Positions 3,910 through 61,730 of a stretch of DNA of 64,000 nucleotides are shown piece by piece; within the stretch, counting starts at the first letter, position 1, and each line of letters opens with the position of its first letter. The position numbers were made by a program, and so were the translations under genes. The stretch lies in contig CAJMGO010000004.1 of the NCBI GenBank assembly GCA_905212975.1, forward strand, positions 4,044-68,043. The letters run 5' to 3'. Source of the DNA: an uncultured Bacillota bacterium. GTDB lineage: Bacteria; Bacillota_I; Bacilli_A; RF39; UBA660. The notes beneath the pieces are model-generated. The model was given only the letters and a program-made list of their open reading frames with translations, was not told the origin of the DNA and ran no database searches.

Positions 3910-6900
3910 ATGAAAAAGTTTTCAAATTTTGTGTGTAAAAACAGAATAGCAATTTTGATTGTTTGTTCATTTTTATTTGTATTTTCAATAATAGGTACTA
4001 AAATGACAAAAATCAATTATGATATTTTAGTTTACTTACCAAAAGATATTGAAACAGTAAAAGGTCAAGATATAATGACAGATGAATTTGGTATGGGTGC
4101 ATATTCTGTTGTTATGACTGATAATATGAGTTCTAAAGAAATTTTAGAATTGGAAGAAAAATTTAGAAATATTGATGGAGTAAGTAAAGTTATAAGTGCT
4201 TATGATGTAATAGGTACTAATATTCCAATAAATATGCTTCCAAATAATATAAGTTCAAAACTTAATAAAGATTCTACTGATTTGTTATTTGTTACATTCG
4301 ATGAATCTACATCATCTATTAAAACTATAGATGCTATAAGAGAAATGAAAAAAATAAACAAAGACGATGTTAGTATAAGTGGTATGAGTTCTATGGTATT
4401 AGATACTATGGATTTATCAGAAAGAGAAATATTTATATATGTTGTAATAGCTGTTATTTTATGCTTACTTGTTCTTGAACTTTCTTTGGATTCTTATTTA
4501 GTACCAGTATTATTGTTAGCAAATATTGGTATAGCTATTTTATATAATTTAGGATCAAATATTATATTTGGAGAAATATCTTATATAACAAAAGCATTGG
4601 TTGCCGTATTACAACTTGGTGTTACAACTGACTTTTCTATATTCTTATATCACTCATATGAAAATAAGAAGAAAGATATAAAAGATAAAAATGAAGCAAT
4701 GAGTGAAGCAATATGTGAAACATTTATATCAGTAACTGGTAGTTCACTTACAACAATTGTTGGATTTCTAGTTCTTTGTACAATGAATTTAACTCTTGGT
4801 AAAGATTTAGGGCTTGTAATGGCTAAAGGTGTATTTTTAGGAGTAGTATGTGTTTTAACTTTGTTCCCAAGTTTACTTCTTACATTTGATTCACTAATAG
4901 AGAAAACTAAACATAAAGCTATTAAATTTAGTTTTAAAGGAATAAATAAATTTGTAATTAAACATTATAAAGCAATATTTATTGTATTTATTATATTGCT
5001 TATACCACTTTATAAAGCAAATAGTAAGGTAAGTGTTTATTATAAAATTGATGAAAGTTTACCAAAAAATTTACATAGTATAGTAGCTAATGAAAAATTA
5101 AAAGAAAAATTTAATATAGTTTCTGCAGAAATTATATTAGTTGATAAAAATATGAAAGCATCTGATCAAGAAAAGATGGTATCAGAAATAGAATCATTAG
5201 ATGGCATTGATTTTGTATTATCATTTTCTAAAGTAGAAGAACTTGGTATAACAAGAAATATGTTAAGTGATGATTTATTAAAAGTATTTGAAAGTGATAA
5301 ATATCAAATGATGTTATTAAATTCTGAATATGATGTCGCTACAGATGAATTAAATAATCAAGTAGATAGTATTAATACAATAATAAAAAAATATGATAAA
5401 AATGCTATATTAGCTGGAGAAGGTCCGCTAATGAAAGATTTAGTTACAATAAGTGATGAAGATTTTAATAGTGTAAATACATCTTCTATATTCTTTATAT
5501 TAATAGTAATGTTATTTGTTCTAAAATCAGTATCACTTCCAATATTATTGATTTTAGCAATAGAAGCTGCAATATTTACAAATATGGGAATATCTTATTT
5601 TTCAGGTTCAGTACTTCCTTTTGTAGCGCCAATAGTTCTTGGAACAATTCAACTTGGAGCAACAATTGATTATGCAATTCTATTGACTACTAATTTTATT
5701 AATTTAAGAAAACAAGGAAATAACAAATTTGAAGCTATAGAAAAATCATTAGATTATTGTTCTAATTCGATATTTGTAAGTGGAATGTGTTTCTTTGCAG
5801 CAACATTTGGTGTTGGTTTATATTCTGATCTAGAAATGGTTGGATCATTATGTACATTAATATCTAGAGGTGCAATTATAAGTATGATAGTTGTTATAAC
5901 TGTACTTCCTTCAATATTATTAGTTTTTGATAAATTAATAATAAAAACTACTTTGGGTATGAAAGGAATGAATAAAATGAAAAAGAAAACAATAAATAAA
6001 GCGAAAAAAGTACTTGCTGCTTTTCTAATTACTTCATGTGCATTATTACCAAATGTATCTTATGCACTAACAAAAGAAGAAACTGTATATGCTAAATTAA
6101 ATAGTGATGGTAGTGTAAAATCTACTACTGTAAATGAACATCTAATAAATGATGAAAAATTAGATTCAATTATTGATTATTCAGATTTAGAGAATATTAC
6201 TAATACTAATAGTAATAATAAATTTAAATCAGAAAATACTCTTTTAACTTGGGATGCTAAAGGAGAAGATATATTTTATCAAGGTACAACAAAAAAACAA
6301 TTACCTATAACTGAATCTGTTACTTATAAATTAAATGGTGAAGAAAAAGATTTAAAAGACATATTAGGTAAAAGTGGGAATATTGAGATAAATATTACTT
6401 ACACAAATTTAGATAAACATAATAAATATATAAATGGAAGATATGAAAATTTATATACTCCTTTTGTTGTAGCTACATCTACAGTTATACCAGTAGAAAA
6501 TAATAGTGATGTAACAATAACTAATGGTAAGGTTGTAAATAATGGAAACTCTTATGTATTAGTAGGTTTATCATCACCAGGCCTTTATGAAAGTACTCGT
6601 ATAAATGATTTAAAAGATTTTAATAAAATAACTATAAAATATAATACTAAAAATTTTGAATTATCATCAATTTATTCAATTATTACTCCAAAATTAATAA
6701 GTAGTAAAGATATAAACAGTTTAGTTAACTTAAATTCTTTATACAGTAGTGTAGAATTATTACAATCTTCAATTGATAAAATAGAAGAAGGTTCAAAAAA
6801 AGCTTTAGATGGTATAACTAGTGTTGAAGATGGAAGTATTAAAATAAATGATAACTTAAAAATTGTATCACAAAAATTAGATGAAATAAAAAATGGTAGT

Positions 6901-7701
6901 ATTTCAGTAGATAATGGATTAGAACAAATAATACAACAATTAGATAAATCAAGTGAAGTTTTAAATAATAAAGAGACATTGCAAAATATTGAAAATATGA
7001 AATTATTAATATCAAAGAATGAAGAAGTTATAAAATCTCTTGAAACATCAACAAGTTCATTGAAAGAAAATTATACTAAATATGCTTTAGCAAATAAAAC
7101 ATATGAAGAAATATTAAATGCTCCAACAGAAATAGATTTATATAATATTAAATTTACTTATGAAAATACATATTCAAAAAATGTTGAAATGTTAACTCTT
7201 TTAAAAACAAATAATGAAGCTTTAAAAACATCTTTAAATACATTTAATGAAGTTAATACAAAAATAACTACAACAATAACAACATTAAAAACATATTTAA
7301 ACCAAATAAAAATAGGAACAAGTAAATTATCATCAGGTACTTCTCAATTAAGTAGTGGAATGACTACACTAAGTGGTAAGATGAATGAACTTACAGCTGG
7401 TACAACAAACCTTAAAAATGGAATGACTACTTTAAATGATGGAATAGTAACATTTAATAATGATGGTATAAAGAAATTATCAAGTATGAGTAATACATTA
7501 AAAACATACTCTACAAGAGTAAATTCACTAGTTAAATTAAGTGAAGAATATAAAACAATGAATTTAAGTGGTGATAATGAAGCTAGTAGTAAATTTATAC
7601 TTGTAATAGATGGTGAAAAGAAAGAAAACAAAGTAACTAAAAAAGAAGAATCAGCAAAAAAAGAAACCATTGCTGATAGAACAAAAAAATTATTTAAATA
7701 A
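3910..7701 (+). CDS. MMPL-family (RND-like) membrane transporter fused to a large C-terminal YhgE/Pip-like repeat domain
   Basis: 1263 aa. N-terminal ~700 aa has two 6-TM bundles typical of MMPL. The C-terminal ~550 aa is Ser/Thr/Asn-rich with repeated ...LSSGTSQLSSGMTTLSGKMNELTAGTTNLKNGMTTLNDG... motifs characteristic of YhgE/Pip (phage infection protein) domains. Confidence 0.7.
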   Translation: MKKFSNFVCKNRIAILIVCSFLFVFSIIGTKMTKINYDILVYLPKDIETVKGQDIMTDEFGMGAYSVVMTDNMSSKEILELEEKFRNIDGVSKVISAYDVIGTNIPINMLPNNISSKLNKDSTDLLFVTFDESTSSIKTIDAIREMKKINKDDVSISGMSSMVLDTMDLSEREIFIYVVIAVILCLLVLELSLDSYLVPVLLLANIGIAILYNLGSNIIFGEISYITKALVAVLQLGVTTDFSIFLYHSYENKKKDIKDKNEAMSEAICETFISVTGSSLTTIVGFLVLCTMNLTLGKDLGLVMAKGVFLGVVCVLTLFPSLLLTFDSLIEKTKHKAIKFSFKGINKFVIKHYKAIFIVFIILLIPLYKANSKVSVYYKIDESLPKNLHSIVANEKLKEKFNIVSAEIILVDKNMKASDQEKMVSEIESLDGIDFVLSFSKVEELGITRNMLSDDLLKVFESDKYQMMLLNSEYDVATDELNNQVDSINTIIKKYDKNAILAGEGPLMKDLVTISDEDFNSVNTSSIFFILIVMLFVLKSVSLPILLILAIEAAIFTNMGISYFSGSVLPFVAPIVLGTIQLGATIDYAILLTTNFINLRKQGNNKFEAIEKSLDYCSNSIFVSGMCFFAATFGVGLYSDLEMVGSLCTLISRGAIISMIVVITVLPSILLVFDKLIIKTTLGMKGMNKMKKKTINKAKKVLAAFLITSCALLPNVSYALTKEETVYAKLNSDGSVKSTTVNEHLINDEKLDSIIDYSDLENITNTNSNNKFKSENTLLTWDAKGEDIFYQGTTKKQLPITESVTYKLNGEEKDLKDILGKSGNIEINITYTNLDKHNKYINGRYENLYTPFVVATSTVIPVENNSDVTITNGKVVNNGNSYVLVGLSSPGLYESTRINDLKDFNKITIKYNTKNFELSSIYSIITPKLISSKDINSLVNLNSLYSSVELLQSSIDKIEEGSKKALDGITSVEDGSIKINDNLKIVSQKLDEIKNGSISVDNGLEQIIQQLDKSSEVLNNKETLQNIENMKLLISKNEEVIKSLETSTSSLKENYTKYALANKTYEEILNAPTEIDLYNIKFTYENTYSKNVEMLTLLKTNNEALKTSLNTFNEVNTKITTTITTLKTYLNQIKIGTSKLSSGTSQLSSGMTTLSGKMNELTAGTTNLKNGMTTLNDGIVTFNNDGIKKLSSMSNTLKTYSTRVNSLVKLSEEYKTMNLSGDNEASSKFILVIDGEKKENKVTKKEESAKKETIADRTKKLFK

Positions 7702-7727
7702 AAGACTTCTAAAAAAGTCTTTTTTTT
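7701..7727 (+). terminator. Terminator of the MMPL gene
   Basis: AAAGACTT-ctaaaa-AAGTCTTT followed by T8. Confidence 0.7.
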
Positions 7728-7735
7728 GCTATAAT
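7727..7735 (+). promoter_or_regulatory. Extended -10 promoter (TGCTATAAT) for the LRR/radical-SAM operon
   Basis: TGnTATAAT lies immediately after the upstream terminator and 19 nt before the AGGTGAG RBS and ATG at 7754. Confidence 0.5.
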
Positions 7736-7753
7736 CAATAATAGGTGAGAATT

Positions 7754-9016
7754 ATGTTTAATATTATATTTATAGTAGTTATTATTTTTATTATTGTAAA
7801 GCAGGTAAAATCTTCATCAAAAATAGATTCAAGTCCTGTTACAATGGGTAATATTAAAATACAAAATAGTTCACAATATACTCTTAATCCAATATATAAC
7901 TTAAATGATAAGCAATTACTTGAACAAATGGTAAGAAGTGAATTAAAAAAACAAAATGTTGAAAAGATAAAATTGAAATCCGTTGAGAATATTAAAATTA
8001 TATTAACTTGTATTTTTTCTTTATTAAATATTGTTTTTATTTGTTGTATATTTTTTCATACATTTTCTTATAAATATTTATTTGAAATTTTAAATATAAT
8101 AGTGTATATAATTATGATGAATAAAGTAAATACAGTAAGTTATTTAAAAAAACAAATTAAAGCAAGACCAGATGAAAAAATATCTTATATTATATCTTCA
8201 AAAGTTCAAGGCTCAGGTAAATCTTTACTATTTATAAGAATGATTATAATTATTGTTAGCTTTTTTTCAATTCTATTTTTTATAAAGCCACATACTTTTT
8301 ATGAAAAGACAGATGAAGGATATTATGTAAGATTTTATACATATGGAATCACTAATTTTGAAACAGTTACGATTCCATCTACATATAAAAATGAAAAAGT
8401 TATTGGAATAAGAGGAAAAGTATTCAGTAATATGAAACTTATAAAAGAAATTAATTTACCTGATTCTATTGAAGTTATAAGAGGAAGAGCATTTGAAAAT
8501 GACTATTCTTTGGAAAAGATTAATTTACCTAAAAATTTAACATATTTAGGTGGTAGTGCATTTAAGAATTGTAGCTCTCTTATATCAATAGAGATACCTA
8601 GTGGTGTTAAAGAAATAAATGGTAGTACTTTTGAAGGATGTTCAAGTTTAAAATATGTTAAATTACATGATAATATAACATCTATACATGGTTCAGTATT
8701 TAAAAATTGTTCAGATTTAGAAGAAATAAAATTACCAAAAAATATTACAGAAATAAGAGGTAATACTTTTGAAGAATGTACATCTCTTAAATCAATTGAT
8801 ATACCATATGGTGTTACAAGAATAGGTGGGCATGCATTTTACGGTTGTACTAATTTAAGGAGTGTTAAAGTTCCATCTACGGTTAAGGAAATAGGAAGTT
8901 CAGCATTTAGAAAGTGTCTTTCTTTAGATATTATTAATATCCCAGAAGATACAATTGTAAATGATAGAGCATTTAAAGAAAGTCCAACATTGGTATATAG
9001 GTATCAAGATGAGTAA
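7754..9016 (+). CDS. Membrane-anchored BspA-type leucine-rich-repeat (LRR_5) protein
   Basis: N-terminal ~200 aa contain about four hydrophobic TM segments. The C-terminal ~200 aa hold about eight tandem ~23 aa repeats (INLPxxLTYLGGSAFKNCSSL / IPSGVKEINGSTFEGCSSL ...). Start taken at ATG 7754 (RBS AGGTGAG) rather than the GTG at 7745. Confidence 0.65.
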   Translation: MFNIIFIVVIIFIIVKQVKSSSKIDSSPVTMGNIKIQNSSQYTLNPIYNLNDKQLLEQMVRSELKKQNVEKIKLKSVENIKIILTCIFSLLNIVFICCIFFHTFSYKYLFEILNIIVYIIMMNKVNTVSYLKKQIKARPDEKISYIISSKVQGSGKSLLFIRMIIIIVSFFSILFFIKPHTFYEKTDEGYYVRFYTYGITNFETVTIPSTYKNEKVIGIRGKVFSNMKLIKEINLPDSIEVIRGRAFENDYSLEKINLPKNLTYLGGSAFKNCSSLISIEIPSGVKEINGSTFEGCSSLKYVKLHDNITSIHGSVFKNCSDLEEIKLPKNITEIRGNTFEECTSLKSIDIPYGVTRIGGHAFYGCTNLRSVKVPSTVKEIGSSAFRKCLSLDIINIPEDTIVNDRAFKESPTLVYRYQDE

Positions 9017-10739
9017 TATGAAATTTATACATTTATTATATGTCCCAACTATGGCATGTAATATGAATTGTAAATATTGTTATTTGGAAGATAATACAAA
9101 AGATGAAATGAAACAATATAAAGCAATTGATACATTAAAATATGCAATAAATAAATTTAAAAATAATAATGTGATGCCATTTAATATTTCACTCCATGGA
9201 GGAGAAGTAACAACTCTAAGTAAAGAAGATTTTCATGATATTATAGAGTATATAAGTAACTATTATAAGGAAAATAAAAATTTAATAGAAGAAAATGGTT
9301 TTAGAGTTGGTACCCCACATATAAAAACAAACTTATATAATTTAGAAAAACATATAGATACAATAAAAGAATTTAATGTATCTATTAGTGGTAGTTTGGA
9401 TTTACCTTTTTCTTTACATGATGAATATAGAATTACAAAAGGTAATAATAAAACATTAGATAAAATCTTAAAAAATATTGAATTATTAAATAAATTAGAA
9501 AATAAGAAAAAGGTATCTGCTACTATATTTAAAGAACACTATAATAGAATCGATGAAATAATAGAAAATATAGAGTATTTAAATAAAAATACATGTTTAG
9601 ATATGAATGATTTTAATTTCATGATAGGATTTGATTATAATTCTAACGGGTTATTAACTCCACTTACAGAAGAAGAACAAGTAGATTTCTTTAATAAAAT
9701 GCATGAACACTTTGATAATACAGATTTAGATTCAGGTGTTAATGGGGCATGGTTTAATGAATTTGGACCAGATTATTGTACTAATTGTGATAATTGTGGA
9801 GAAAAATTCTTTTTACTTGAAAAAAATGGAGATATTTATTCTTGCGTAAGAGGTCAAAAACATAAAGAATTTTATTATGGAAATATTTACAATAATACGA
9901 TAGAAGAAATACTAAATAATGCTTATGAAAAAATTATGAAAGCACATAATATGCAAAAGATGAGTGAAGAATGTAAAAATTGTGAGTATTTATATATATG
10001 TAAAACAGGGTGCCCATTTGTTAAAAATATTTATAATTCTAATAAGTCTTATACTTGCAAACTACAAAAAGAATTATATAAAAAAAGAAATTATGAACCA
10101 ATTAATGATAAGTCTATAATGTATGATTATATGTGTAAGATGCATCCTGATATAGCAGATGAATTTATAGTTAAAAATAATAATGAACATAAAAATTTAG
10201 AAGATTTAATAAAGGAAGATATACATTTAAAATATATATATGATCCAAACTCATTTATCTTAAGTATTGATGGAAATGAATATAATTTAGAGTCACAAAT
10301 ATTAAAAAAATCAAGGGAAATAGTATATATAACTAATAAAAGTAAAGTTGTTTTATATATAAGAAAAAATATAATAAATGAAGAATGTGAATATCCAGAG
10401 AACAATTCTGTTTGGATTATGCTATTAAGTGGAGATACAGTACAATATGGTGATGAAAAAAGAGTGAAACAAAGACATATAATGACACATCAGATATATA
10501 AAGGTGTACTTAATCAAATAAAATGTAATAAAGATGATTTTTATTGCTATGATATTACAAATTTATTAAAAGAATATAGTATATATCTATCAAATACTAA
10601 TCCAAATAATATATTTTTTACAACAGCATCACTTAGGGATTATCATTATTTAAAACAAAAAAATAATGCATATTACCATATAGAAGCAATAAATTTACCT
10701 TTTCAAAATATAGAGTTTAATTATTTAGAATGGAAGTGA
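9009..10739 (+). CDS. Radical SAM / SPASM-domain enzyme with ~200 aa C-terminal extension of unknown function
   Basis: CNMNCKYC is a Cx3Cx2C radical-SAM cluster motif and GGEVTTL is a SAM-binding motif. The SPASM/twitch region shows GDIYSC...YYGNIY and CKNCEYLYICKTGC (Cx2Cx5Cx3C). The ATG overlaps the LRR gene stop (ATGAGTAA), indicating translational coupling. Residues ~380-576 have no recognisable motif. Confidence 0.8.
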   Translation: MSNMKFIHLLYVPTMACNMNCKYCYLEDNTKDEMKQYKAIDTLKYAINKFKNNNVMPFNISLHGGEVTTLSKEDFHDIIEYISNYYKENKNLIEENGFRVGTPHIKTNLYNLEKHIDTIKEFNVSISGSLDLPFSLHDEYRITKGNNKTLDKILKNIELLNKLENKKKVSATIFKEHYNRIDEIIENIEYLNKNTCLDMNDFNFMIGFDYNSNGLLTPLTEEEQVDFFNKMHEHFDNTDLDSGVNGAWFNEFGPDYCTNCDNCGEKFFLLEKNGDIYSCVRGQKHKEFYYGNIYNNTIEEILNNAYEKIMKAHNMQKMSEECKNCEYLYICKTGCPFVKNIYNSNKSYTCKLQKELYKKRNYEPINDKSIMYDYMCKMHPDIADEFIVKNNNEHKNLEDLIKEDIHLKYIYDPNSFILSIDGNEYNLESQILKKSREIVYITNKSKVVLYIRKNIINEECEYPENNSVWIMLLSGDTVQYGDEKRVKQRHIMTHQIYKGVLNQIKCNKDDFYCYDITNLLKEYSIYLSNTNPNNIFFTTASLRDYHYLKQKNNAYYHIEAINLPFQNIEFNYLEWK

Positions 10740-10743
10740 AAGT

Positions 10744-11106
10744 ATGTTTAAAGAACCAGAAACATATAATGATTTAATTAGAACAAAAAGGTGTTCTGAT
10801 TTAGCAAAATATTTTGATATACCTAAAGAAATACTAGAAGAAATATGGAATTTTTTATCTCAAAATCCAAAAAATAACGTATATGCATCAAGCAATAAAA
10901 TTAATTTATATACTAATAATAATTTGATAAAGGTTGAAACTTTACCAACTTCTTGTTCAAGTGTAAGTGGTATAAAAATATCAGATAAAGAATTTAAAAT
11001 ATATCCAATTTATACACCAAGTTCATCTAGAAATTATTATACATCAAGTGGCCGTTCTTCTAATAACAATAATAACAACAACAATAATAATAACAATAAT
11101 AACTAG
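10744..11106 (+). CDS. Hypothetical 120 aa protein with a Ser/Tyr-rich C-terminal region ending in a poly-Asn tail; candidate substrate or partner of the rSAM enzyme
   Basis: Starts 4 nt after the rSAM stop. The C-terminus is ...PIYTPSSSRNYYTSSGRSS(N)14, encoded by an imperfect (AAT/AAC)n trinucleotide repeat. Only 2 Cys. Confidence 0.5.
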   Translation: MFKEPETYNDLIRTKRCSDLAKYFDIPKEILEEIWNFLSQNPKNNVYASSNKINLYTNNNLIKVETLPTSCSSVSGIKISDKEFKIYPIYTPSSSRNYYTSSGRSSNNNNNNNNNNNNNN

Positions 11107-11108
11107 AC

Positions 11109-12125
11109 ATGATAAGAGTTTATGATAAAGCTCATTATAATAGATTAAATGAGTATAATGTAAAAATTAAAACTACATATAAAGATGATAAGTCATTACA
11201 TGTAGTGGATGATAATACAAAAAATGATATTGTTGATGGTATTAGATTAGAAAAAGAATATTATAAAGATAATAAATTAGTTTATAAAATAAAAGATTTT
11301 GATCCAAGAATTAAATATACATTTGTAACTAATAATGAAGATGATAAAATAATTAAATGCCCAAATTGTGGTATGAGTGATATTGGTAAAAATTTTAAAG
11401 AAGGATGTCCTTATTGTGGTACATATTATAATGTTGATTATGAAAATAAAAGTTTAGGCGCTAAATATCATTATGATAGAGCTATTAAAGAAAGCAAATA
11501 TTTATTTATAACTTTTGTTGTTGATTTAATTATGAGTTTTTTAATAATGTTTTGCTATATAAAAATAACAGGAAGAACTTTTAATGTTTATGATATATCA
11601 AAAATATTTATTTATACAATAATACTTGCTGCAGCTCTTTTTTATGTATTTTATATGCTAAATGCGTTTATTATAACTTTACCTGTAAAAATATATAAAG
11701 ATAAAATTAATAAACGTCAAATAGAGTTTTGGAACAGAATGAAAGATATAAATAAAAATACATTTTATAATAATCTTAATTATGAATTACAAAACTATTT
11801 TTATAAAGATATTCCAAATATAATTGATTATGATATTATTGATTATATAGAATTTAAGGAACAATATGATGAAAAGCATAATTTATATATATGTGTTAAA
11901 TTGAAATTGAGAATTGTAAAAATAGAAAATAATAAAATAATGTCTTATGAAGAGGTAAAGAATATTAAATTAGAAAAAAATGATGTAAAAATAGAACAAT
12001 TAAATAGTGGAATTAATGTAATAAAATGTAGAGGTTGTGGAGCATCAATCGATGTAACACAAAATGAATGTGAATATTGCGGTGTAAAGACAAATTATTT
12101 ACAAGAATGGTATCTAATAAAGTAA
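11109..12125 (+). CDS. Membrane protein with two CxxC-N-CxxC zinc-ribbon motifs flanking two TM helices
   Basis: CPNCG...CPYCG (res ~84-103) and CRGCG...CEYCG (C-terminal), with two hydrophobic helices in between. Starts 2 nt after the preceding stop. Confidence 0.55.
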   Translation: MIRVYDKAHYNRLNEYNVKIKTTYKDDKSLHVVDDNTKNDIVDGIRLEKEYYKDNKLVYKIKDFDPRIKYTFVTNNEDDKIIKCPNCGMSDIGKNFKEGCPYCGTYYNVDYENKSLGAKYHYDRAIKESKYLFITFVVDLIMSFLIMFCYIKITGRTFNVYDISKIFIYTIILAAALFYVFYMLNAFIITLPVKIYKDKINKRQIEFWNRMKDINKNTFYNNLNYELQNYFYKDIPNIIDYDIIDYIEFKEQYDEKHNLYICVKLKLRIVKIENNKIMSYEEVKNIKLEKNDVKIEQLNSGINVIKCRGCGASIDVTQNECEYCGVKTNYLQEWYLIK

Positions 12126-16283: not shown

Positions 16284-16303
16284 TGTTTTAAATTTATAAA
16301 AAT

Positions 16304-16329
16304 AAAGAATATGAGAAGTATTCTTTTTT
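16304..16329 (+). terminator. Terminator after the SEDS gene
   Basis: AAAGAATA-tgagaag-TATTCTTT followed by T-run. Confidence 0.65.
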
Positions 16330-16330
16330 A

Positions 16331-16361
16331 TTGACTCTCCATTTGACTGTAATGATATATT
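16331..16361 (+). promoter_or_regulatory. Promoter with 19-bp -35/-10 spacer (MerR-type architecture) upstream of the MerR gene
   Basis: TTGACT, a 19 nt spacer (containing a second TTGACT), then TGaTATATT (extended -10). Confidence 0.35.
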
Positions 16362-16445
16362 TTAACTGTAAAGAGGTGAATAATATTTAAATATAAAATT
16401 AATACGTGATATAATTTAATTAGTTAAAATTTAAAAGGAGGTCAT

Positions 16446-16823
16446 ATGTTATATAAAATAGGTGAGTTTTCAAATATGACAGGACTATCTGTGAAAACTT
16501 TAAGGTATTACGATGATATAGATTTATTTAAACCAATTGATGTAGATTTATTTACTGGGTATAGATATTATAGCACTGATCAAATTTATGATTTAGAGCT
16601 AATCAATGTATTAAAAAGTGTTGGATTTTCATTAGAAGAAATAAAAAATAATTGGGATTCTTTTACAGTAGATTTGTTTAATGAAAAAAAAGATGAATTA
16701 TTAAAAGATATAGAAATAAAACAAAAAGCAATAAAAAAAATAGATGAATTAAAAAGTAATTTAAATAATGGTAAAATTAGAAAAAGAAAGGAAAATACAA
16801 AGAAAGTTAAATCTTTGTATTAA
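16446..16823 (+). CDS. MerR family transcriptional regulator
   Basis: N-terminal MerR HTH (YKIGEFSNMTGLSVKTLRYYDDIDLFKP) with a C-terminal coiled-coil. Confidence 0.75.
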   Translation: MLYKIGEFSNMTGLSVKTLRYYDDIDLFKPIDVDLFTGYRYYSTDQIYDLELINVLKSVGFSLEEIKNNWDSFTVDLFNEKKDELLKDIEIKQKAIKKIDELKSNLNNGKIRKRKENTKKVKSLY

Positions 16824-16832
16824 GGTGATAAA

Positions 16833-17858
16833 ATGAATAATACAAGTTTATTAATAGGAAAAGCAAATAATAAAAATATAAGACACGAAATTAGTTGTAA
16901 TATAAATAATTCTATAACAAATCATGAGAATATATTAGTTTTTAGTGATAATGTATCTTATTATAGTGATTTTTTAAGAAAATTAAATGAAGAAGAATAT
17001 AATACCTATATATTAAATTTAAAAGATAGTTCTCATAGTAATGGATTTAATCCTTTTATTCTTCCATATAAATATTATAAATCTGGTAAAAAAGATAAAG
17101 CAGTTGAAATGTTAGAAAGCATTGGGCATGAGATTTGTAAGGAAAAGAATAGTAATTCAGATCCTTTTTGGGAGAATAGTGCTACATCATATTTTACGAC
17201 TTTAGCGCTTATTCTTTTTAAAGAAGGATCATATGATGAAATAAATCTAGGAAGTATACAAACTATGTTAACTCTTGGTGAAAAAGAATTTGAAGATACT
17301 AATTTAATTAAAAAGTATTTTAGTACCTTGGATATTATGGATCCTATTTATGTATTTGGATCTCAAGTTATATATTCTCCATCTGAAACTAGAGCAAGTA
17401 TTATATCGGTATTAAAACAAAAATTAAATTTATATTGTACAAAAGAAATTTTATTAAATAATTTATGTAATAACGAAATAGATTTATCTATTTTAAATAA
17501 TAAAACAGCAATTTTTATAATAAGTGATACTAAATATAATGGTATTTCTAATATACTAATAAATCAAATATTTAATCAAAATAAAGAATTTTCATATTAT
17601 ATAGATAAAATAGAAAAATTAAATAGTATTACTGAATTAGAAAATATGATTGATAATAATGAAAAAATATTTATTACGTCAAGTTCTAAGCAAGAAATTA
17701 GTGATATATATGGAAATAACTTAATAAATAATATAAATTATGTTAAAGATGTAAAAGAAGAGTATGAAATTTTAGATAAATGTAATATTAATTTACCAGA
17801 TACTAAAATTAATAAACATAATTATTTTAATATAGAGGATTTTATAAAAAAATGTTAA
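16833..17858 (+). CDS. VirD4/TraG-type coupling-protein-like soluble domain with degenerate P-loop
   Basis: Spacing and motifs resemble the T4CP core: ILVFSDNVSYYS matches the VVVTDPKGELY region, NGFNPF the NPLD motif, and DPFWENSATSYFTTLALIL the xxFWxxAxxLLxAL helix. Walker A is GKANNKN instead of GxxGSGKT and there are no TM segments. Confidence 0.4.
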   Translation: MNNTSLLIGKANNKNIRHEISCNINNSITNHENILVFSDNVSYYSDFLRKLNEEEYNTYILNLKDSSHSNGFNPFILPYKYYKSGKKDKAVEMLESIGHEICKEKNSNSDPFWENSATSYFTTLALILFKEGSYDEINLGSIQTMLTLGEKEFEDTNLIKKYFSTLDIMDPIYVFGSQVIYSPSETRASIISVLKQKLNLYCTKEILLNNLCNNEIDLSILNNKTAIFIISDTKYNGISNILINQIFNQNKEFSYYIDKIEKLNSITELENMIDNNEKIFITSSSKQEISDIYGNNLINNINYVKDVKEEYEILDKCNINLPDTKINKHNYFNIEDFIKKC

Positions 17859-17925
17859 AAAATTAAATTTATACTTTAAATCTACATAGAATATATTATT
17901 ATAGTGTAATATTGGGGGTAACACA

Positions 17926-18069
17926 TGAAAAAAATAGAAAAATTAAAAAAATTAAGGAATGCTTTATTATATTATAAAGCAAGTATTGAACATGATGAAC
18001 AGATTAATAATCAATTTGTTCAATATGAAAAAAGTAAAGAAAAAGTAAAAATTTTAACTTTATTTAAAT
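17926..18069 (+). CDS. Small hypothetical protein (47 aa), absent from the ORF track
   Basis: Strong RBS GGGGGT 6 nt before the ATG. Lys/Glu-rich. Confidence 0.25.
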
Positions 18070-18154
18070 AACAAAAGAACATTCATTAGAATGTTTTTTT
18101 TTGATGTTATAATTTGAAAAAAGTAATAAAAAGTGTTACAATTATGAAGTTGAG

Positions 18155-21034: not shown

Positions 21035-21144
21035 AAAATTATCATCCTCCTAGAATAAATATATACTATAATATTTGGTAAGTCAAGTTAGGTTTGACAG
21101 GGGTTAAGTTTTGTTATAAAATTGTTAATAGAATAGGTGATGTT

Positions 21145-21507
21145 ATGAAAAAAGGTTTTACTTTGATTGAATTGTTGGCTGTTATTACTATAATGGGTTT
21201 GCTTGCTGTTATTATGATACCTAAGATTTTAGAAAGAGTTGATAACGATAACCAAAAAGTAGATGAAGCAAAGGTTTCATTAATTAAAAGTGCGGCTGAT
21301 ACATATATATCCAAAAATATAAATGATTATCCAAATACATTAAATAATATTTATTGTATTTCTTTATCTGATCTTGATGATTCAGGACTTATAATGGTTG
21401 ATATATCTGATGTTATAGATAATGGTTATGCTTATGTTAAAGCTAGTATTAAAGAAAATGGTAATTTGTATTCTTTAACAGAAAAGTGTCAAGAAGTTAA
21501 AAATTAG
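21145..21507 (+). CDS. Type IV pilin / pseudopilin-like protein (class III signal peptide)
   Basis: MKKG|FTLIELLAVITIMGLLAVI is a prepilin peptidase cleavage/methylation motif. 120 aa with two C-terminal Cys (disulfide loop). RBS AGGTGA. No adjacent pilB/pilC genes. Confidence 0.7.
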   Translation: MKKGFTLIELLAVITIMGLLAVIMIPKILERVDNDNQKVDEAKVSLIKSAADTYISKNINDYPNTLNNIYCISLSDLDDSGLIMVDISDVIDNGYAYVKASIKENGNLYSLTEKCQEVKN

Positions 21508-21710: not shown

Positions 21711-21748
21711 TTTATGTTATAATTGTCTTAATGATAGGAGGCATCATT

Positions 21749-24007
21749 ATGAGTAAGAAAAAAAAGAGAAAAGAAGAAGGTAAAACTCCTAAAAAATATT
21801 CTACAGAATTATTTGGTTTACTTCTTATAATAATTGCTCTTATAGGTTTTATTCCAAAAACAGGAATTATAGGTAATTTTATAAGTAGTTTTTCATCCTT
21901 TTTAGTTGGAATATGGTATGGTTTGTTTTTGATAGCTTTAATAGTTATTGGAATATATATGATTATAAAAAGAGAAAAACCAGACTTTTTTACATCAAAA
22001 CTTGTTGGGCTTTATATATTTATTTTAGGATTATTAGTTTTAACTCATACTAAATATATAAAAGATACTGATTTAAAAGGAATGGATATAATCAGTGAAA
22101 CTTTAAATCAATTTATGGCTTCTATATCATCAGGTAAAAGTCAATTAGGTGGTGGAATTATAGGAGCTGCATTTTCTTGCCTTTTTGTAACTCTTTTTGA
22201 TACAACAGGAACTACTATTGTAACATGGGCATTACTTATATGTGGTGTTGTTATGTTTACTGGAATGTCTATTATGGATATTTTAAAGAAAGGTGCTTCG
22301 AAGGTTAAAATAACAAAACATGAAAAGAAAGAAAAAGAAGAAAAAAATGAAGTTAGAGAAATTCATGACTTAAAAGAACTTGATGAAGTAAATGAACAAA
22401 GTGATAAAAGAACTGTTGTAACATCAATAGATGAGATAATAAATATTAATAATAATGCAAAGGAAGAAGTTAAACCAGATGTTATTTTAGAACCAAAAGA
22501 TGTTGTTGAAGAAATTGAACCTATAAATAAAAAAGGCTATGTTCTTCCTTCTAATAATCTTCTTTCTAAACCAAAACAAAAACAAGTAGAGAGTAAAGAT
22601 ACTATTGCTCATAATGTTACTGTACTTGAACAAGTTTTAAAGGATTTTGGTATAACTGGACATGTTGTTGCAATTAATCCTGGACCTACGGTTACTCAAT
22701 ATGAAGTAGAAGCTGCAAGTGGTACAAAAATGAGTAAAGTTTTAAGTATTCATAGGGAAATTGCTCTTGCTTTAGCTGCTAAAAATATTCGTATAGAAGC
22801 ACCTATACCTGGTAAATCAACTATAGGTATAGAAATACCTAATAAAGTTGTTTCTACTGTAACAGTAAGAGAAATTCTAGATAGTGTACCTCCTAAATAT
22901 AAAGATTCTAAATTGCTTACTACTTTAGGTAGAGATATAATGGGATCTCCTCAATATTGTGAGATTAATAAAACACCACACCTTTTGGTTGCTGGATCTA
23001 CTGGTAGTGGTAAATCAGTATGTATAAATAGTATGATTGTATCAATACTTATGCGTTCTAAACCTGATGAGGTAAAATTAGTATTAGTTGATCCAAAAAA
23101 GGTAGAACTTTCTATGTATAATGGAATTCCACATTTATTAACTCCTGTTGTAACTGATCCAAGAAAGGCTAATATAGCTTTAAAGAAGATTGTTACTGAA
23201 ATGGAAAATAGATATGATATGTTTAGTGATAGTGGTACTAAAAATATTGCTGGATATAATGAATATGTTGAAAAAGAAAATAAAAATAGAGATGAAAATC
23301 ATAAGATTAGAAAATTACCATTTATAGTTGTAATAATTGATGAACTTGCTGATTTAATGCTTGTTGCTGCAAAAGAGGTAGAAGATTCCATTATGCGTAT
23401 AACTCAAATGGCAAGAGCAGCTGGTATTCATTTGATTGTAGCGACTCAAAGACCTTCAACTGATGTAATTACTGGTGTTGTAAAAGCTAATATTCCATCT
23501 CGTATTTCATTTGCTGTTTCATCTAGTATAGATTCAAGAACAATTCTTGATATGACAGGTGCTGAAAAATTACTTGGTAAAGGTGATATGTTATTCTTAC
23601 CTCAAGGAGAAAATACTCCTATAAGAATTCAGGGTACTTTTATAAGTGATGAAGAAATAAAGAAAGTTGTAGATTATACTATAAATCAACAAAAAGCTCA
23701 TTACGATGAAACTTTTATAATGAGTGATGAAGAGATGCATGCTACAACTATGGTAAACGAAACAAGTAGTTCAAATCCTCATGAAAAAGATGCTACGGAA
23801 GAGCCTTTATATAATGAAATTGTTGAATTCGTTGTAACACAAGGTAAGGCAAGTGCTTCGCTTTTACAAAGAAGATTTAGACTTGGATATAATAGGGCAG
23901 CACGTGCAATTGATTTGTTAGAAGAACGTGGTATTGTAGGACCTCAAAATGGTTCTAAGCCAAGAGAGGTACTTATAAAACTTGAAAAAGAAGATAATGA
24001 TGATTAA
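21749..24007 (+). CDS. ftsK: DNA translocase FtsK/SpoIIIE
   Basis: N-terminal 4-TM domain, linker, motor domain (GSTGSGKSVCINSMIVSIL Walker A, VVIIDELADLM Walker B) and C-terminal gamma winged-helix domain. RBS AGGAGG. Confidence 0.9.
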   Translation: MSKKKKRKEEGKTPKKYSTELFGLLLIIIALIGFIPKTGIIGNFISSFSSFLVGIWYGLFLIALIVIGIYMIIKREKPDFFTSKLVGLYIFILGLLVLTHTKYIKDTDLKGMDIISETLNQFMASISSGKSQLGGGIIGAAFSCLFVTLFDTTGTTIVTWALLICGVVMFTGMSIMDILKKGASKVKITKHEKKEKEEKNEVREIHDLKELDEVNEQSDKRTVVTSIDEIININNNAKEEVKPDVILEPKDVVEEIEPINKKGYVLPSNNLLSKPKQKQVESKDTIAHNVTVLEQVLKDFGITGHVVAINPGPTVTQYEVEAASGTKMSKVLSIHREIALALAAKNIRIEAPIPGKSTIGIEIPNKVVSTVTVREILDSVPPKYKDSKLLTTLGRDIMGSPQYCEINKTPHLLVAGSTGSGKSVCINSMIVSILMRSKPDEVKLVLVDPKKVELSMYNGIPHLLTPVVTDPRKANIALKKIVTEMENRYDMFSDSGTKNIAGYNEYVEKENKNRDENHKIRKLPFIVVIIDELADLMLVAAKEVEDSIMRITQMARAAGIHLIVATQRPSTDVITGVVKANIPSRISFAVSSSIDSRTILDMTGAEKLLGKGDMLFLPQGENTPIRIQGTFISDEEIKKVVDYTINQQKAHYDETFIMSDEEMHATTMVNETSSSNPHEKDATEEPLYNEIVEFVVTQGKASASLLQRRFRLGYNRAARAIDLLEERGIVGPQNGSKPREVLIKLEKEDNDD

Positions 24008-24020
24008 TCTTCTTTTTTTT
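23988..24020 (+). terminator. Terminator overlapping the ftsK stop
   Basis: AAGAAGAT-N11-ATCTTCTT followed by T8. Confidence 0.6.
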
Positions 24021-24043
24021 GATATAATTAATATGGTGATTAT

Positions 24044-24928
24044 ATGAAGTATTTATCTGAATTTTTAAAATACATTGATTTAGAAAAAAACTATTCTAAT
24101 TATACTTTAATTAATTATAAAGATGATTTATCTTTTTATTTAGATTTTTTAAATAAAGAGAATATTGATGTGTTAGATAGTGATTATAAAGTAATTAGAA
24201 ATTATTTATCATATATGTATAATAAAAAATATAGTTCTAAAACTATAAGTAGACATATAAGTTCTCTTAGAAGCTTTTATAAATATATGTTAAAAGAAAA
24301 TTATATAGTTAAAAATCCTATGACTCTTATATCTAATCCAAAACAAGAAAGTAAACTACCTCATTTTTTATACTATAATGAACTTGAAACTATTTTAAAT
24401 ATTCCAGATAAAAGTACACCTTTAGGTCAAAGAGATAGTGTAATATTAGAGCTTTTATATTCAACTGGTATAAGAGTAAGTGAGCTAGTTAATATAAAAT
24501 TAAAAGATATAAATTTAAGTACAAGAAAAATTAGAATTTTAGGTAAAGGAAATAAGGAAAGAATAGTTTTATATGGAGAATATTTAAAAAACTTACTTGA
24601 TATATATTTAAATGATGGAAGGGAAAAATTAGTAAAGAATAATCAAGAGTATCTGGTTTTAAATAAAAATGGTAGTGGTCTTACAACTAGAGGAGTTAGA
24701 GTTATAATAGATAATATTTTAAAAAAAGGTGAAATAGATTTTCATATTAGTCCACACGTTTTAAGGCATACTTTCGCAACACATATGTTAGATAGTGGAG
24801 CTGATTTAAAAAGTGTTCAAGAATTATTAGGTCATGAGAATTTATCTACTACTCAAATTTATACTCATGTTTCAAATGAACGACTTAGAAAAGTATATTT
24901 ATCAACACATCCAAGAGCCAAAATGTAA
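24044..24928 (+). CDS. Tyrosine site-specific recombinase XerC/XerD family
   Basis: 294 aa with C-terminal catalytic motifs HVLRHTFATHML and LGHENLSTTQIYTHV (R-H-R-Y). The size and motifs fit chromosome-dimer-resolution Xer recombinases. Confidence 0.8.
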   Translation: MKYLSEFLKYIDLEKNYSNYTLINYKDDLSFYLDFLNKENIDVLDSDYKVIRNYLSYMYNKKYSSKTISRHISSLRSFYKYMLKENYIVKNPMTLISNPKQESKLPHFLYYNELETILNIPDKSTPLGQRDSVILELLYSTGIRVSELVNIKLKDINLSTRKIRILGKGNKERIVLYGEYLKNLLDIYLNDGREKLVKNNQEYLVLNKNGSGLTTRGVRVIIDNILKKGEIDFHISPHVLRHTFATHMLDSGADLKSVQELLGHENLSTTQIYTHVSNERLRKVYLSTHPRAKM

Positions 24929-61718: not shown

Positions 61719-61730
61719 GTGGTGAATAAT

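Follow-up and report, generated by a model that had tools for sequence, protein, structure and literature searches.

A MerR-linked descendant of type IV coupling proteins without a P-loop in the chromosome of an uncultured gut bacterium

A three-gene module between ftsW and ltaS

The window analysed here (64,000 nucleotides of an uncultured Bacillota bacterium) contains a self-contained, chromosomally fixed module of three genes, whose neighbours are cell-division genes, with ftsW upstream and ltaS downstream. The genes encode a MerR-family regulator of 125 aa (merR, 16446-16823), a protein of 341 aa derived from type IV coupling proteins (T4CPs; 16833-17858) and a Lys-rich protein of 48 aa (17925-18071); these and all features below are on the forward strand. 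A terminator-like hairpin with a T-run at the end of the ftsW unit (16304-16330; RNA fold with a 9-bp stem, dG -6.2) forms the left edge of the module, and another one, GAACATTC-ATTA-GAATGTT with a T-run (18075-18103; dG -10.8), forms the right edge ahead of the ltaS promoter. A consensus terminator scan found none in either place, missing the hairpin at 16304-16330 because its stem is AT-rich, and both AT-rich hairpins emerged from direct folding.

A -35 element TTGACT (16331-16336), a 19-nt spacer CTCCATTTGACTGTAATGA (16337-16355) and a -10 element TATATT (16356-16361), as read from the sequence, would make up a MerR-target-type promoter (spacer of 19-20 bp) with a putative dyad operator at 16331-16361. 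The initial annotation had pointed to a 19-bp spacer typical of MerR-activated promoters, and the element is indeed found at that position and conserved upstream of orthologous operons. This promoter motif occurs once in the window (0.00 occurrences expected), and TTGACT-N19-TAnnnT with a dyad centred between GTT and AAC lies 5' of the orthologous operons at 37 loci, namely 31 of 38 loci, five of six further loci and L098. In L028, the element carries a 22-bp perfect palindrome, ACACTCTAGTTAACTAGAGTGT. No site is variable in the region 16284-16445 among 12 within-species copies. A second, sigma-A-type promoter with an extended -10 element (16386-16415; TTTAAA, 18 nt, TGaTATAAT) was the top match of a promoter scan (10/12 plus TG), and probably supplies basal merR expression. 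Such a TGnTATAAT box recurs beside the MerR-type promoter in many orthologous loci, and a remnant of a ribosome-binding site, AAAGAGGTGA, is present without any ORF between the two promoters.

The merR product matched PF13411 (MerR_1, E=1e-17) and PF00376 (MerR, E=4e-11) of Pfam. Its closest solved structures are BmrR (E=3e-17, residues 3-79) and MtaN (E=1e-10, residues 1-104), and it can be aligned to residues 1-99 of MtaN and to CueR. The monomer model consists of a wHTH and a long helix (residues 75-104), which is a candidate dimerisation helix, followed by a disordered tail (105-125; pLDDT below 50 at 115-125). There is neither an effector-binding domain nor a metal-binding loop; the protein ends at residue 125, has no Cys, and its tail terminates in the motif K-x-K-S-[LI]-[YF], which is conserved in orthologues. 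Searches of NCBIfam gave weak similarity to HspR (5e-7) and TnrA (2e-5). The dN/dS of merR is 0.15, and 646 blocks of the sequence collection list an identical MerR protein. The domain layout of a wHTH and a long helix resembles that of the multidrug-efflux activators BmrR and Mta (MtaN) of Bacillus subtilis, and the TTGACT -35 element, 19-bp spacer and central dyad of the module promoter are arranged as in the bmr promoter. Efflux pumps are the classical targets of BmrR-type MerRs. Unlike BmrR and Mta, however, the MerR protein here lacks a ligand domain (GyrI-like or TipAS-like) and carries a 20-residue disordered tail with its KxKS[LI][YF] end. As MtaN, a truncation, is active constitutively, the present MerR would need another input.

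The third gene product, MKKIEKLKKLRNALLYY...KEKVKILTLFK, combines an amphipathic helix motif at its N-terminus with a basic/hydrophobic motif, 'KVKxLTL', at its C-terminus. Pfam gave no match for it, and BLAST found no link between small ORFs from different groups of loci. On the other hand, a leave-one-group-out HMM built from other loci recovered the 48-aa ORF with E=1.6e-8 among 6765 small ORFs; this procedure linked seven of the ten groups, with L016, L017 and the L021/L026/L083 group remaining non-significant. Gene callers annotate the ORF in every within-species contig shown. Homologues occupy one of two places, the stretch from the MerR-type promoter to merR or the region 3' of the T4CP-like gene. 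The C-terminus of the 48-aa protein could resemble the MerR tail, although this is a short low-complexity pattern that may have arisen by chance.

Before the small ORF lies a possible degenerate MerR-type promoter (17875-17905; TTTAAA, 19 nt, TATAGT); its positional homologue in L086 (4537) and L087 (3536), relatives with 84% identity, is an intact operator, TTGACT-19-TATAGT. Judging from position, the operator would govern the small ORF in these two loci and a Cys-rich ORF, which also had no Pfam match, in L001, L023, L082 and L090. In several relatives, the product of the latter is a tail-anchored Cys-rich membrane protein under a module-type operator. Moreover, the operon of L086 and L087 includes an ABC exporter gene, which overlaps the T4CP-like gene at the 3' end of the latter. 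The exporter and the Cys-rich protein are each present in a minority of loci only. The MerR-type operator was seen only at the genes of the module and at these add-ons, that is, the small ORF, the Cys-rich protein and, via the operon, the ABC exporter. The initial annotation had correctly paired MerR with a T4CP-like protein, but it missed the third gene, the second promoter and the Cys-rich and ABC exporter genes of the relatives.

A coupling-protein fold that has lost its anchor and ATPase motifs

T4CPs are known only as ATPases at the membrane that supply type IV secretion systems (T4SSs) with substrates. The start codon of the 341-aa gene is 9 nt past the merR stop codon, which is overlapped by the ribosome-binding site AAGGTGA. 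The VirD4/TraG-like core proposed for its product was borne out by sequence profiles, pairwise alignment and fold. Residues 57-261 matched PF02534 (T4SS-DNA_transf) with E=1.1e-9 and 38.1 bits, above the gathering score of 20.1. Residues 44-253 also matched positions 64-280 of the 442 of NF045973 ('VirD4-like, CD1115 family') with 74.5 bits and E=7e-21. The equivalog cut-off of the latter profile (250 bits) was not reached, and by sequence the protein is a relative of the CD1115 family and no equivalog. It shares 38% identity over 248 aa (E=2e-50) with L035, a full-length, TM-anchored, chromosomally encoded T4CP of 710 aa from a related gut bacterium. The closest relatives on plasmids are conjugative CD1115-family T4CPs with 25-30% identity and partial coverage.

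Sequence search of PDB chains gave only noise (E > 0.5), and the AlphaFold model (pLDDT 90.5) was compared with PDB structures by Foldseek. The best match was Cagbeta of Helicobacter pylori (8dol; E=6e-8, TMq 0.66), followed by TrwB (1e9s/1gki; E of about 1e-6), with HerA-type defence ATPases among the weaker ones. The model shows the TrwB fold, a RecA-like nucleotide-binding domain (NBD) with an inserted all-alpha domain; the N-terminal part of the NBD covers residues 1-62, the all-alpha domain about 63-215 and the C-terminal part of the NBD 216-310. The NBD and all-alpha core are homologous to those of L035 and of the CD1115/pLS20-type VirD4 coupling proteins found on conjugative plasmids and ICEs of Firmicutes, and the blocks NPL.LPY, DPFWE.SA.YF, EINL.S, APSET.G.I and KTA.FI follow one another in a common order. 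The 341-aa protein is a descendant of these CD1115/pLS20-type proteins.

Compared with these T4CPs, it has no TM region, a dead Walker A motif, a degenerate DPKGE motif and a replaced Walker B Glu. The alignment to L035 starts at residue 148 of that protein, and therefore the TM region is absent, as the initial annotation had held; the protein begins 8 residues ahead of the Walker A position, with a beta-strand (residues 4-8) as the first element of the model. The same alignment agrees with its description of the motifs. GKANNKNIR stands under GSTGSGKTQ, so that the Walker A consensus GxxxxGK[ST] is replaced by GKANNKNI at residues 9-16 (GSTGSGKT in L035), and FSDNVSYY stands under TDPKGEIY, with SDNVSYY in place of DPKGE. 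Other blocks remain recognisable, with NGFNPFILPY under NAWNPLYLPY and DPFWENSATSYFTTLALILF under DPFWEKSSADYFSGLALGLF. The DE of Walker B is IDK (YYIDK) in the 341-aa protein and LDN in the family, both aligning to FILDE; Asp258 is invariant in an alignment of 27 sequences, and the catalytic Glu is replaced family-wide. In the C-terminal part of the NBD, which is shorter than in T4CPs by about 100 aa, SSSKQEISDIYG stands for QNFAQLNQIYG, and a motif LP..K.N...YFN is found at the C-terminus.

The P-loop loss reported in the initial annotation holds for the clade of the query, to which should be added that most members of the short family retain GKxxxGKT. The P-loop-less proteins fall into a single clade within the P-loop-positive ones, and GEVNTYKTT is present in a second clade. 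The family motif table further revealed that the K/R of the DNK (DPKGE-like) motif was lost together with the P-loop. The catalytic Glu of Walker B is thus missing from the whole family, and in the query clade the P-loop is gone as well, together with the basic residue in the DPKGE-like motif.

Conservation, selection and genomic setting

Related loci were collected by a search with a family alignment of nine sequences. The short family, of about 340 aa, occurs in uncultured gut Bacilli; in more than 100 protein clusters its members measure about 331-357 aa, a length that is kept down to 36% identity. In all 49 loci examined, including 33 of 33 GTDB loci, merR lies directly 5' of the short-family gene, in agreement with the pairing with MerR noticed at the start. 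merR is also upstream of a TM-less relative of 546 aa. In longer TM-less relatives, the core is fused to variable C-terminal domains (NUDIX, SUKH-1 (SMI1_KNR4) and DUF4272), beyond which Pfam found nothing in their C-terminal extensions; one of the longer relatives has no MerR.

The dN/dS of the 341-aa gene is 0.25 against the 84%-identical relative and 0.20 in the all-alpha domain, and one pair of relatives differs by seven synonymous and no non-synonymous changes. Within the species, 10 synonymous and 15 non-synonymous SNPs were counted; neither a frameshift nor a nonsense mutation was found in 12 copies, and the gene was present in all 22 contigs read with an identical FtsW. The all-alpha domain, which in real T4CPs binds partners and substrates, is the best conserved part of the protein, containing 36 of the 55 columns with at least 90% conservation. 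Even the P-loop-less clade, which has diversified to about 46% identity, has retained this domain, with a conservation of 0.78 there versus 0.46 at the P-loop. It is evident that the fold, chiefly its all-alpha domain, is under purifying selection.

The genes flanking the module are housekeeping genes that differ between loci, and its genomic position differs even between 84%-identical relatives. The GC content is 19.7% in the module and 23.9% in the window, the GC3 of 8-12% is similar to that of the window, and the composition gives no sign of a recent transfer. In line with the initial annotation, no VirB4, relaxase or other T4SS gene was detected in the ORFs scanned at positions 3.9 to 25 kb of the window or in the ten largest of its other ORFs. 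Nor did the genes flanking related loci include a T4SS or relaxase gene, except for a Mob_Pre relaxase 1 kb from the module of L090. Thus, in contrast to CD1115-type T4CPs, the short family is unlinked to T4SS or relaxase genes at the loci examined and always linked to merR. The gene content was read over 64 kb, and a T4SS is possible elsewhere in the genome.

Database searches gave little for the T4CP-like protein: there was no match in PADLOC-DB 2.0 or in PHROGs, and in collections of viral contigs, phages and plasmids no close relative was found, with partial matches of 25-30% only. MerR matched a 60-residue HTH model of PADLOC-DB (mad1, E=7.5e-10) in its HTH region. A literature search found no description of a module of MerR and a short T4CP.

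Possible roles of the module

Because the anchor and the ATPase motifs are lost and the fold is selected, the 341-aa protein, as far as its sequence tells, cannot be an ATP-driven DNA pump and must act by binding. We are highly confident of its identity and its exaptation from a T4CP. The locus as a whole is best explained as a self-regulated MerR module whose exapted T4CP scaffold is non-catalytic, an explanation to which we give a little less than an even chance. The alternative of a domesticated non-ATPase derivative under MerR control, which the initial annotation had offered, is supported by the conserved length, the dN/dS of 0.25, the undisrupted copies and the linkage to merR.

The activity of some MerR-family regulators is set by a partner protein, glutamine synthetase for TnrA/GlnR and DnaK for HspR, and hspR is co-transcribed with its ATPase partner. 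Like the MerR protein here, these regulators are short and have a C-terminal tail, but they do not use the distortion mechanism of a 19-bp spacer and their partners are unrelated to T4CPs, so that the analogy is functional only. Another likeness is found in the conjugative plasmid pIP501, which encodes both a TM-less T4CP and a small protein that binds DNA and has a MerR-like fold: TraJ is brought to the membrane by TraI, TraN has the MerR-like fold and binds TraJ in two-hybrid assays, and the release of TraN from DNA by contact with TraJ has been proposed (PMC4981023). Unlike the 341-aa protein, however, TraJ retains ATP binding and weak ATPase activity and belongs to a complete T4SS operon. 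TraN is an internal double-wHTH repressor, not a dimeric coiled-coil MerR, and does not act at a 19-bp-spacer promoter. Moreover, the best structural match offers a precedent for a small T4CP regulator, since CagZ, by binding to the all-alpha domain, controls the oligomeric state of Cagbeta (PMC9886983). CagZ (about 23 kDa) has no sequence relationship to the 48-aa ORF, and Cagbeta is anchored in the membrane and active as the ATPase of a T4SS.

With regard to mechanism, the module would be transcribed from the BmrR-type MerR promoter, backed by the extended -10 promoter. The T4CP-derived protein would most likely be the protein partner of MerR, because MerR has only a DNA-binding part, a candidate dimerisation helix and a conserved disordered tail, and because the operator was seen only at the module and its add-ons. 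Its all-alpha domain may receive a signal, either a protein or a nucleic acid, upon which the T4CP-derived protein would toggle MerR between repressing and activating forms through the MerR tail. The 48-aa protein, whose C-terminus resembles this tail, may act as a modulator or competitor. Switching of MerR by the T4CP-derived protein is possible but far from assured, and the full three-component transcriptional switch, composed of the T4CP scaffold, a MerR with a docking tail and a tail-mimicking micro-protein, is doubtful. If the module itself is all that the operator controls, a pure sensor role would leave the output undefined. The T4CP-like protein may instead be an effector rather than a co-regulator.

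The variable C-terminal domains and the MerR-less long relative fit conflict systems better than a dedicated co-regulator. In a conflict module, the T4CP scaffold would sense some component of an invader or sequester it. Acting as a soluble decoy, it might capture relaxosomes or coupling partners of conjugative elements, or it might detect DNA or protein from phages, and MerR would hold the module off until needed. A compact, self-regulated cassette whose position varies even between close relatives is what such a system might look like, fusions to NUDIX, SUKH-1 or DUF4272 are a typical pattern of conflict systems, and the HerA-type defence ATPases among the fold matches and the Mob_Pre relaxase near the L090 module point the same way. 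Nevertheless, we consider this explanation unlikely, in view of the absence of a PADLOC match for the T4CP-like protein, the generic nature of the HTH model matched by MerR and the lack of close relatives in the phage, viral and plasmid collections searched. The module is also present in every contig read for the species, among cell-division genes and with a composition near that of the window, and in the window it encodes no toxin or nuclease-type effector. Quite improbable is a coupling adaptor, a soluble, non-catalytic receptor that would hand a substrate (the small protein or DNA, perhaps) to a membrane machine elsewhere, such as an ABC exporter, the Cys-rich membrane protein, a T4SS or a Com/pilus system. 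It would agree with the classical control of efflux pumps by BmrR-type MerRs, with the exporter gene overlapping the T4CP-like gene in L086 and L087 and with the Cys-rich protein under a module-type operator; a TM-less T4CP with a separate membrane partner is moreover known in TraJ/TraI (PMC4981023). Against it, the query has neither P-loop nor catalytic Glu, its module encodes no membrane partner, the exporter and the Cys-rich protein are restricted to a minority of loci, and VirB4, relaxase and other T4SS genes were absent from the scanned window ORFs and, apart from that of L090, from the related flanks.

The initial annotation had also considered an inactivated relic of an integrated conjugative element. 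Integrated mobilisable elements (IMEs) carrying their own VirD4 have been described (PMC5704250), and the lost ATPase motifs and TM anchor, together with the absence of other conjugation genes in the scanned ORFs, are what a conjugative or mobilisable element drifting to loss could leave behind. On the other hand, the length is conserved in more than 100 clusters down to 36% identity, the dN/dS is 0.25, seven synonymous changes stand against none that alter the protein, and none of the 12 population copies is disrupted. The partner gene, the operator and the small ORF are conserved as well, and the P-loop-less clade has kept its all-alpha domain while diverging to about 46% identity. We thus rejected the relic, as selection, conservation and the presence of the gene in 22 of 22 contigs leave it hardly any probability.

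The exapted scaffold in a MerR module, which we prefer, would mean that a soluble, catalytically dead T4CP derivative tied to a sensor-less MerR has been fixed in the chromosome of a common human-gut bacterium and maintained by selection. If both proteins cooperate, the MerR family would gain an input device of a new kind, and conjugation genes would be seen to have a new fate. If the switch operates as outlined, a widespread lineage of uncultured gut Bacilli would offer the first example of exaptation of a T4SS motor protein to gene regulation. The family also provides a comparative series from ATPase to pseudo-enzyme, running from the full-length active form through loss of the Walker B Glu to loss of the P-loop. 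Finally, the family proteins carry the annotation 'conjugative DNA transfer family protein', which would falsely signal mobile elements in these genomes.

A coupling-protein core without anchor or catalytic site

The 341-aa protein of the window matched the Pfam model T4SS-DNA_transf with 38.1 bits against a threshold of 20.1 (E=1.1e-9) and the NCBIfam model of CD1115-type VirD4 proteins with E=7e-21, well under the equivalog cut-off. A scan of GTDB species genomes revealed relatives in 210 species, including full-length, TM-anchored type IV coupling proteins (T4CPs) with intact motifs. The T4CP of a related locus, L035 (7560-9692; 710 aa, with GSTGSGKTQ, TDPKGEIY, FILDEFAN and IIQNFAQLNQIYG), shares 38% identity with the window protein over 248 residues (E=2e-50). 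In this alignment the Walker A position is occupied by GKANNKNIR and the DPKGE position by FSDNVSYY in the window protein, while the NPF/LPY and DPFWE..SA..YF blocks match. AlphaFold, supplied with 27 homologues, gave a confident model (pLDDT 90.5), for which the T4CPs Cagbeta and TrwB scored best in the PDB (E=6e-8 to 1e-6). The initial annotation, made from the sequence alone, had described a VirD4/TraG-like core keeping these blocks, with GKANNKN in place of Walker A and DNVSY in place of DPKGE; the Pfam match, the L035 alignment and the fold matches therefore confirm this observation in every detail. The protein is a T4CP descendant that has neither anchor nor catalytic site.

A profile search against 1.8 billion representatives returned 480 proteins at E<1e-30, comprising TM-anchored T4CPs and many TM-less proteins of 400-870 aa. 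The long TM-less relatives (P0120, P0252-P0335) match, from about residue 13, the whole profile of the ~340-aa anchorless proteins of uncultured gut Bacilli (hereafter the short family, to which the window protein belongs) and have its LDNFD Walker B, but vary in their C-terminal additions (NUDIX, SUKH-1 (SMI1_KNR4), DUF4272 and unknown domains). Such a relative is MerR-linked in locus L098 and not in L099, where a ClpC-like gene follows. Plasmids, phages and viral contigs yielded no close relative. What matched on plasmids are genuine conjugative CD1115-family T4CPs of 25-30% identity, such as a 729-aa protein from Clostridioides difficile whose plasmid neighbour is a pLS20_p028-type membrane protein. 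In addition, about 47 related gut Bacilli species have, in housekeeping context, conserved full-length TM-anchored T4CPs in which Walker A, DPKGE and Walker B are all intact (L034-L080; 49-86% identity). In four of these loci PepF-DnaJ lies upstream, and in about 30 RmuC lies 1-5 kb downstream. These T4CPs look like orphan chromosomal coupling proteins that are inherited vertically.

Conservation and history of the motifs

The family of the window protein forms 159 database clusters, and among the 120 listed nearly all members have 331-357 aa, with identities of 36-99%. Compared with the 84%-identical relative in L086, the T4CP-like gene showed an overall dN/dS of 0.25 (0.20 for the all-alpha domain alone), and merR one of 0.15; L086 and L087 differ by seven synonymous and no non-synonymous changes. 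None of the 12 within-species copies is disrupted; their SNPs comprise 10 synonymous and 15 non-synonymous ones. Thus, the T4CP-like protein is under purifying selection. The module, that is merR, the T4CP-like gene and a 48-aa ORF, is fixed in the species of the window, being present in 22 of the 22 contigs read with an identical FtsW; the identical MerR protein occurs in 646 blocks of the sequence collection, on contigs of up to 1.27 Mb. An inactivated relic of a conjugative element, which had been proposed as one reading, is rejected by the conserved length across clusters, the dN/dS of 0.25, the absence of disruption in the 12 copies and the 22 contigs.

Family alignment showed that most members retain a P-loop, GKxNxGKT, together with LDNKxEYY, and that all short-family members have LDN (or LDG, LDD, IDK) versus the LDE of T4CPs. 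Since none of them has LDE, the short family lost the catalytic glutamate at its root; this residue is likewise missing in the longer TM-less relatives displayed. In a neighbour-joining tree, the P-loop-less proteins, including that of the window, make up one clade nested among P-loop-positive ones, and a second clade has GEVNTYKTT, with Tyr instead of Gly preceding Lys. Loss of the P-loop and of the basic residue of the DNK motif go together. In the P-loop-less clade the all-alpha domain is best conserved (mean column identity 0.78 vs 0.46 at the former P-loop), and family-wide 36 of the 55 columns conserved at 90% or more lie within it. It is the binding domain and the fold that selection retains, not the catalytic site.

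The MerR partner, its promoter and add-on genes

In the window, 9 nt separate the stop of merR (16446-16823, forward strand, 125 aa) from the T4CP-like gene downstream of it (16833-17858, forward strand), and this stop overlaps a ribosome-binding site. The pair lies between a PBP gene, mraY and ftsW upstream and an LtaS-type gene and tRNA-Cys downstream. AT-rich hairpins followed by T-runs are located at 16304-16330 and 18075-18103, and therefore the 48-aa ORF (17925-18071), which the initial annotation lacked, falls inside the same transcription unit.

A MerR gene is directly upstream of the T4CP-like gene in all 33 short-family loci from GTDB genomes, in every further short-family locus fetched, and also before a 546-aa TM-less relative, so the pair is conserved in related species. 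The flanks vary by locus, with housekeeping genes such as argS-like, tsaE/tsaD, topA and polC. No T4SS genes were seen in the flanks of related short-family loci except one Mob_Pre (MobV-type) relaxase gene in L090 (8026-9543), 1 kb downstream of the pair, which is the sole conjugation-related gene seen close to any copy. The earlier statement that no other conjugation genes are nearby also held, as neither VirB4 nor relaxase was found among the scanned ORFs of the window. The window MerR is closest to BmrR (E=3e-17) and an MtaN fragment; it consists of a wHTH, a long helix (75-104) and a disordered 20-residue tail, and contains neither a ligand domain nor Cys. The tail ends in K-x-K-S-[LI]-[YF] in most orthologues. 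In the short-family loci examined, the T4CP-like protein is thus always co-encoded with an effector-less BmrR-like MerR.

Two A8 runs are present in merR of the window (16684-16691 and 16733-16740). The first run is A7 in two independent metagenome contigs (L106, L107), giving an 85-aa MerR, and frameshifts at the two runs would match the lengths of catalogue proteins of 85 and 98-100 aa. Assembly error is one possible cause, phase variation of the regulator another.

The MerR-type promoter predicted with a 19-nt spacer is indeed present on the forward strand (-35 TTGACT at 16331-16336, TATATT at 16356-16361), and its motif occurs once in the window against 0.00 expected. Of 38 loci, 31 have a homologous TTGACT-N19-TAnnnT with a dyad centred on GTT|AAC in the 1 kb preceding merR (three of the other seven being contig ends), and so do five of six further loci and L098; L028 has a perfect 22-bp palindrome. 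The region 16284-16445 has no variable site among the 12 population copies. A second promoter with an extended -10 (16386-16415) stands beside the MerR-type promoter, which similar TGnTATAAT boxes accompany in many relatives.

At least 20 loci contain a Lys-rich ORF of 38-58 aa whose N-terminus has a helix motif and whose C-terminus has a KVKxLTL-like one. It lies either past the T4CP-like gene or between merR and the MerR-type promoter. When the window's group was left out of the training set, the resulting HMM still picked out the 48-aa ORF from 6765 small ORFs (E=1.6e-8), and such leave-out HMMs significantly recovered seven of ten small-ORF groups. Both the MerR-type promoter in front of the T4CP-like gene and the accompanying micro-protein are thus conserved. 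In L086 and L087 the small ORF has its own intact operator copy; the window counterpart (17875-17905) keeps the 19-nt spacing and TATAGT but has lost TTGACT and the dyad. Five loci carry a Cys-rich, tail-anchored ORF (about 93 aa) that bears an N-terminal CxxCC...C...C motif, matches no Pfam model and is absent from the window: L001 (3061-3342), L023 (about 746-1015), L031 (6179-6454), L082 (9256-9549) and L090 (5247-5528). An operator copy is directly upstream of it in all of these but L031, where none was found. From the positions of these copies, the operator appears to control only the genes of the module and its add-ons.

An ABC exporter gene (ABC_membrane + ABC_tran) is present in L086 (2778-4532) and L087 (1777-3531), which represent the closest other species (84% aa identity); there it overlaps the end of the T4CP-like gene and sits between that gene and the small ORF. 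Its 3' end resembles that of the window T4CP-like gene, a likeness that suggests an insertion or deletion there. The L087 module is just downstream of tRNA-Cys, whereas ltaS intervenes in the window.

Possible roles and genomic surroundings

The locus is best described as a MerR-controlled chromosomal module that has exapted a pseudo-ATPase derived from a T4CP. The dead motifs, purifying selection, constant merR linkage and conserved promoter support the proposal of a domesticated non-ATPase under MerR control. Because the MerR has no sensor domain, the T4CP-derived protein would be its most plausible input; it may act by binding via its all-alpha domain and would probably signal through the conserved MerR tail. 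The TnrA/GlnR-GS and HspR-DnaK pairs offer a functional analogy for a partner-controlled MerR. A conflict system fits about as well, given that the longer relatives vary in their C-terminal domains and that the module occupies different genomic positions, and a residual adaptor role towards a membrane exporter may also be considered. For the T4CP-derived protein as MerR input, pIP501 provides a precedent, in which TraN, with a MerR-like fold, contacts the TM-less T4CP TraJ (PMC4981023). The all-alpha domain is the part of true T4CPs that recognises relaxosome proteins as well as small regulators, among them CagZ (PMC9886983). Our literature searches found no published description of a MerR plus short T4CP-like module; source annotations name family members 'hypothetical protein' or 'type IV secretory system conjugative DNA transfer family protein'.

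Elsewhere in the window there are T2SSE and T2SSF genes (60387-63236; ComGA/ComGB-like, or a pilus ATPase and platform), a pilin-like ORF with an N-terminal methylation motif (21094-21507), and FtsK followed by a XerC/D-like recombinase (21731-24928). Moreover, a cluster at 3910-12125 encodes an MMPL-family transporter (1263 aa), a BspA-type LRR protein, a radical SAM/SPASM protein and a zinc-ribbon protein, and could be a peptide-maturation locus.
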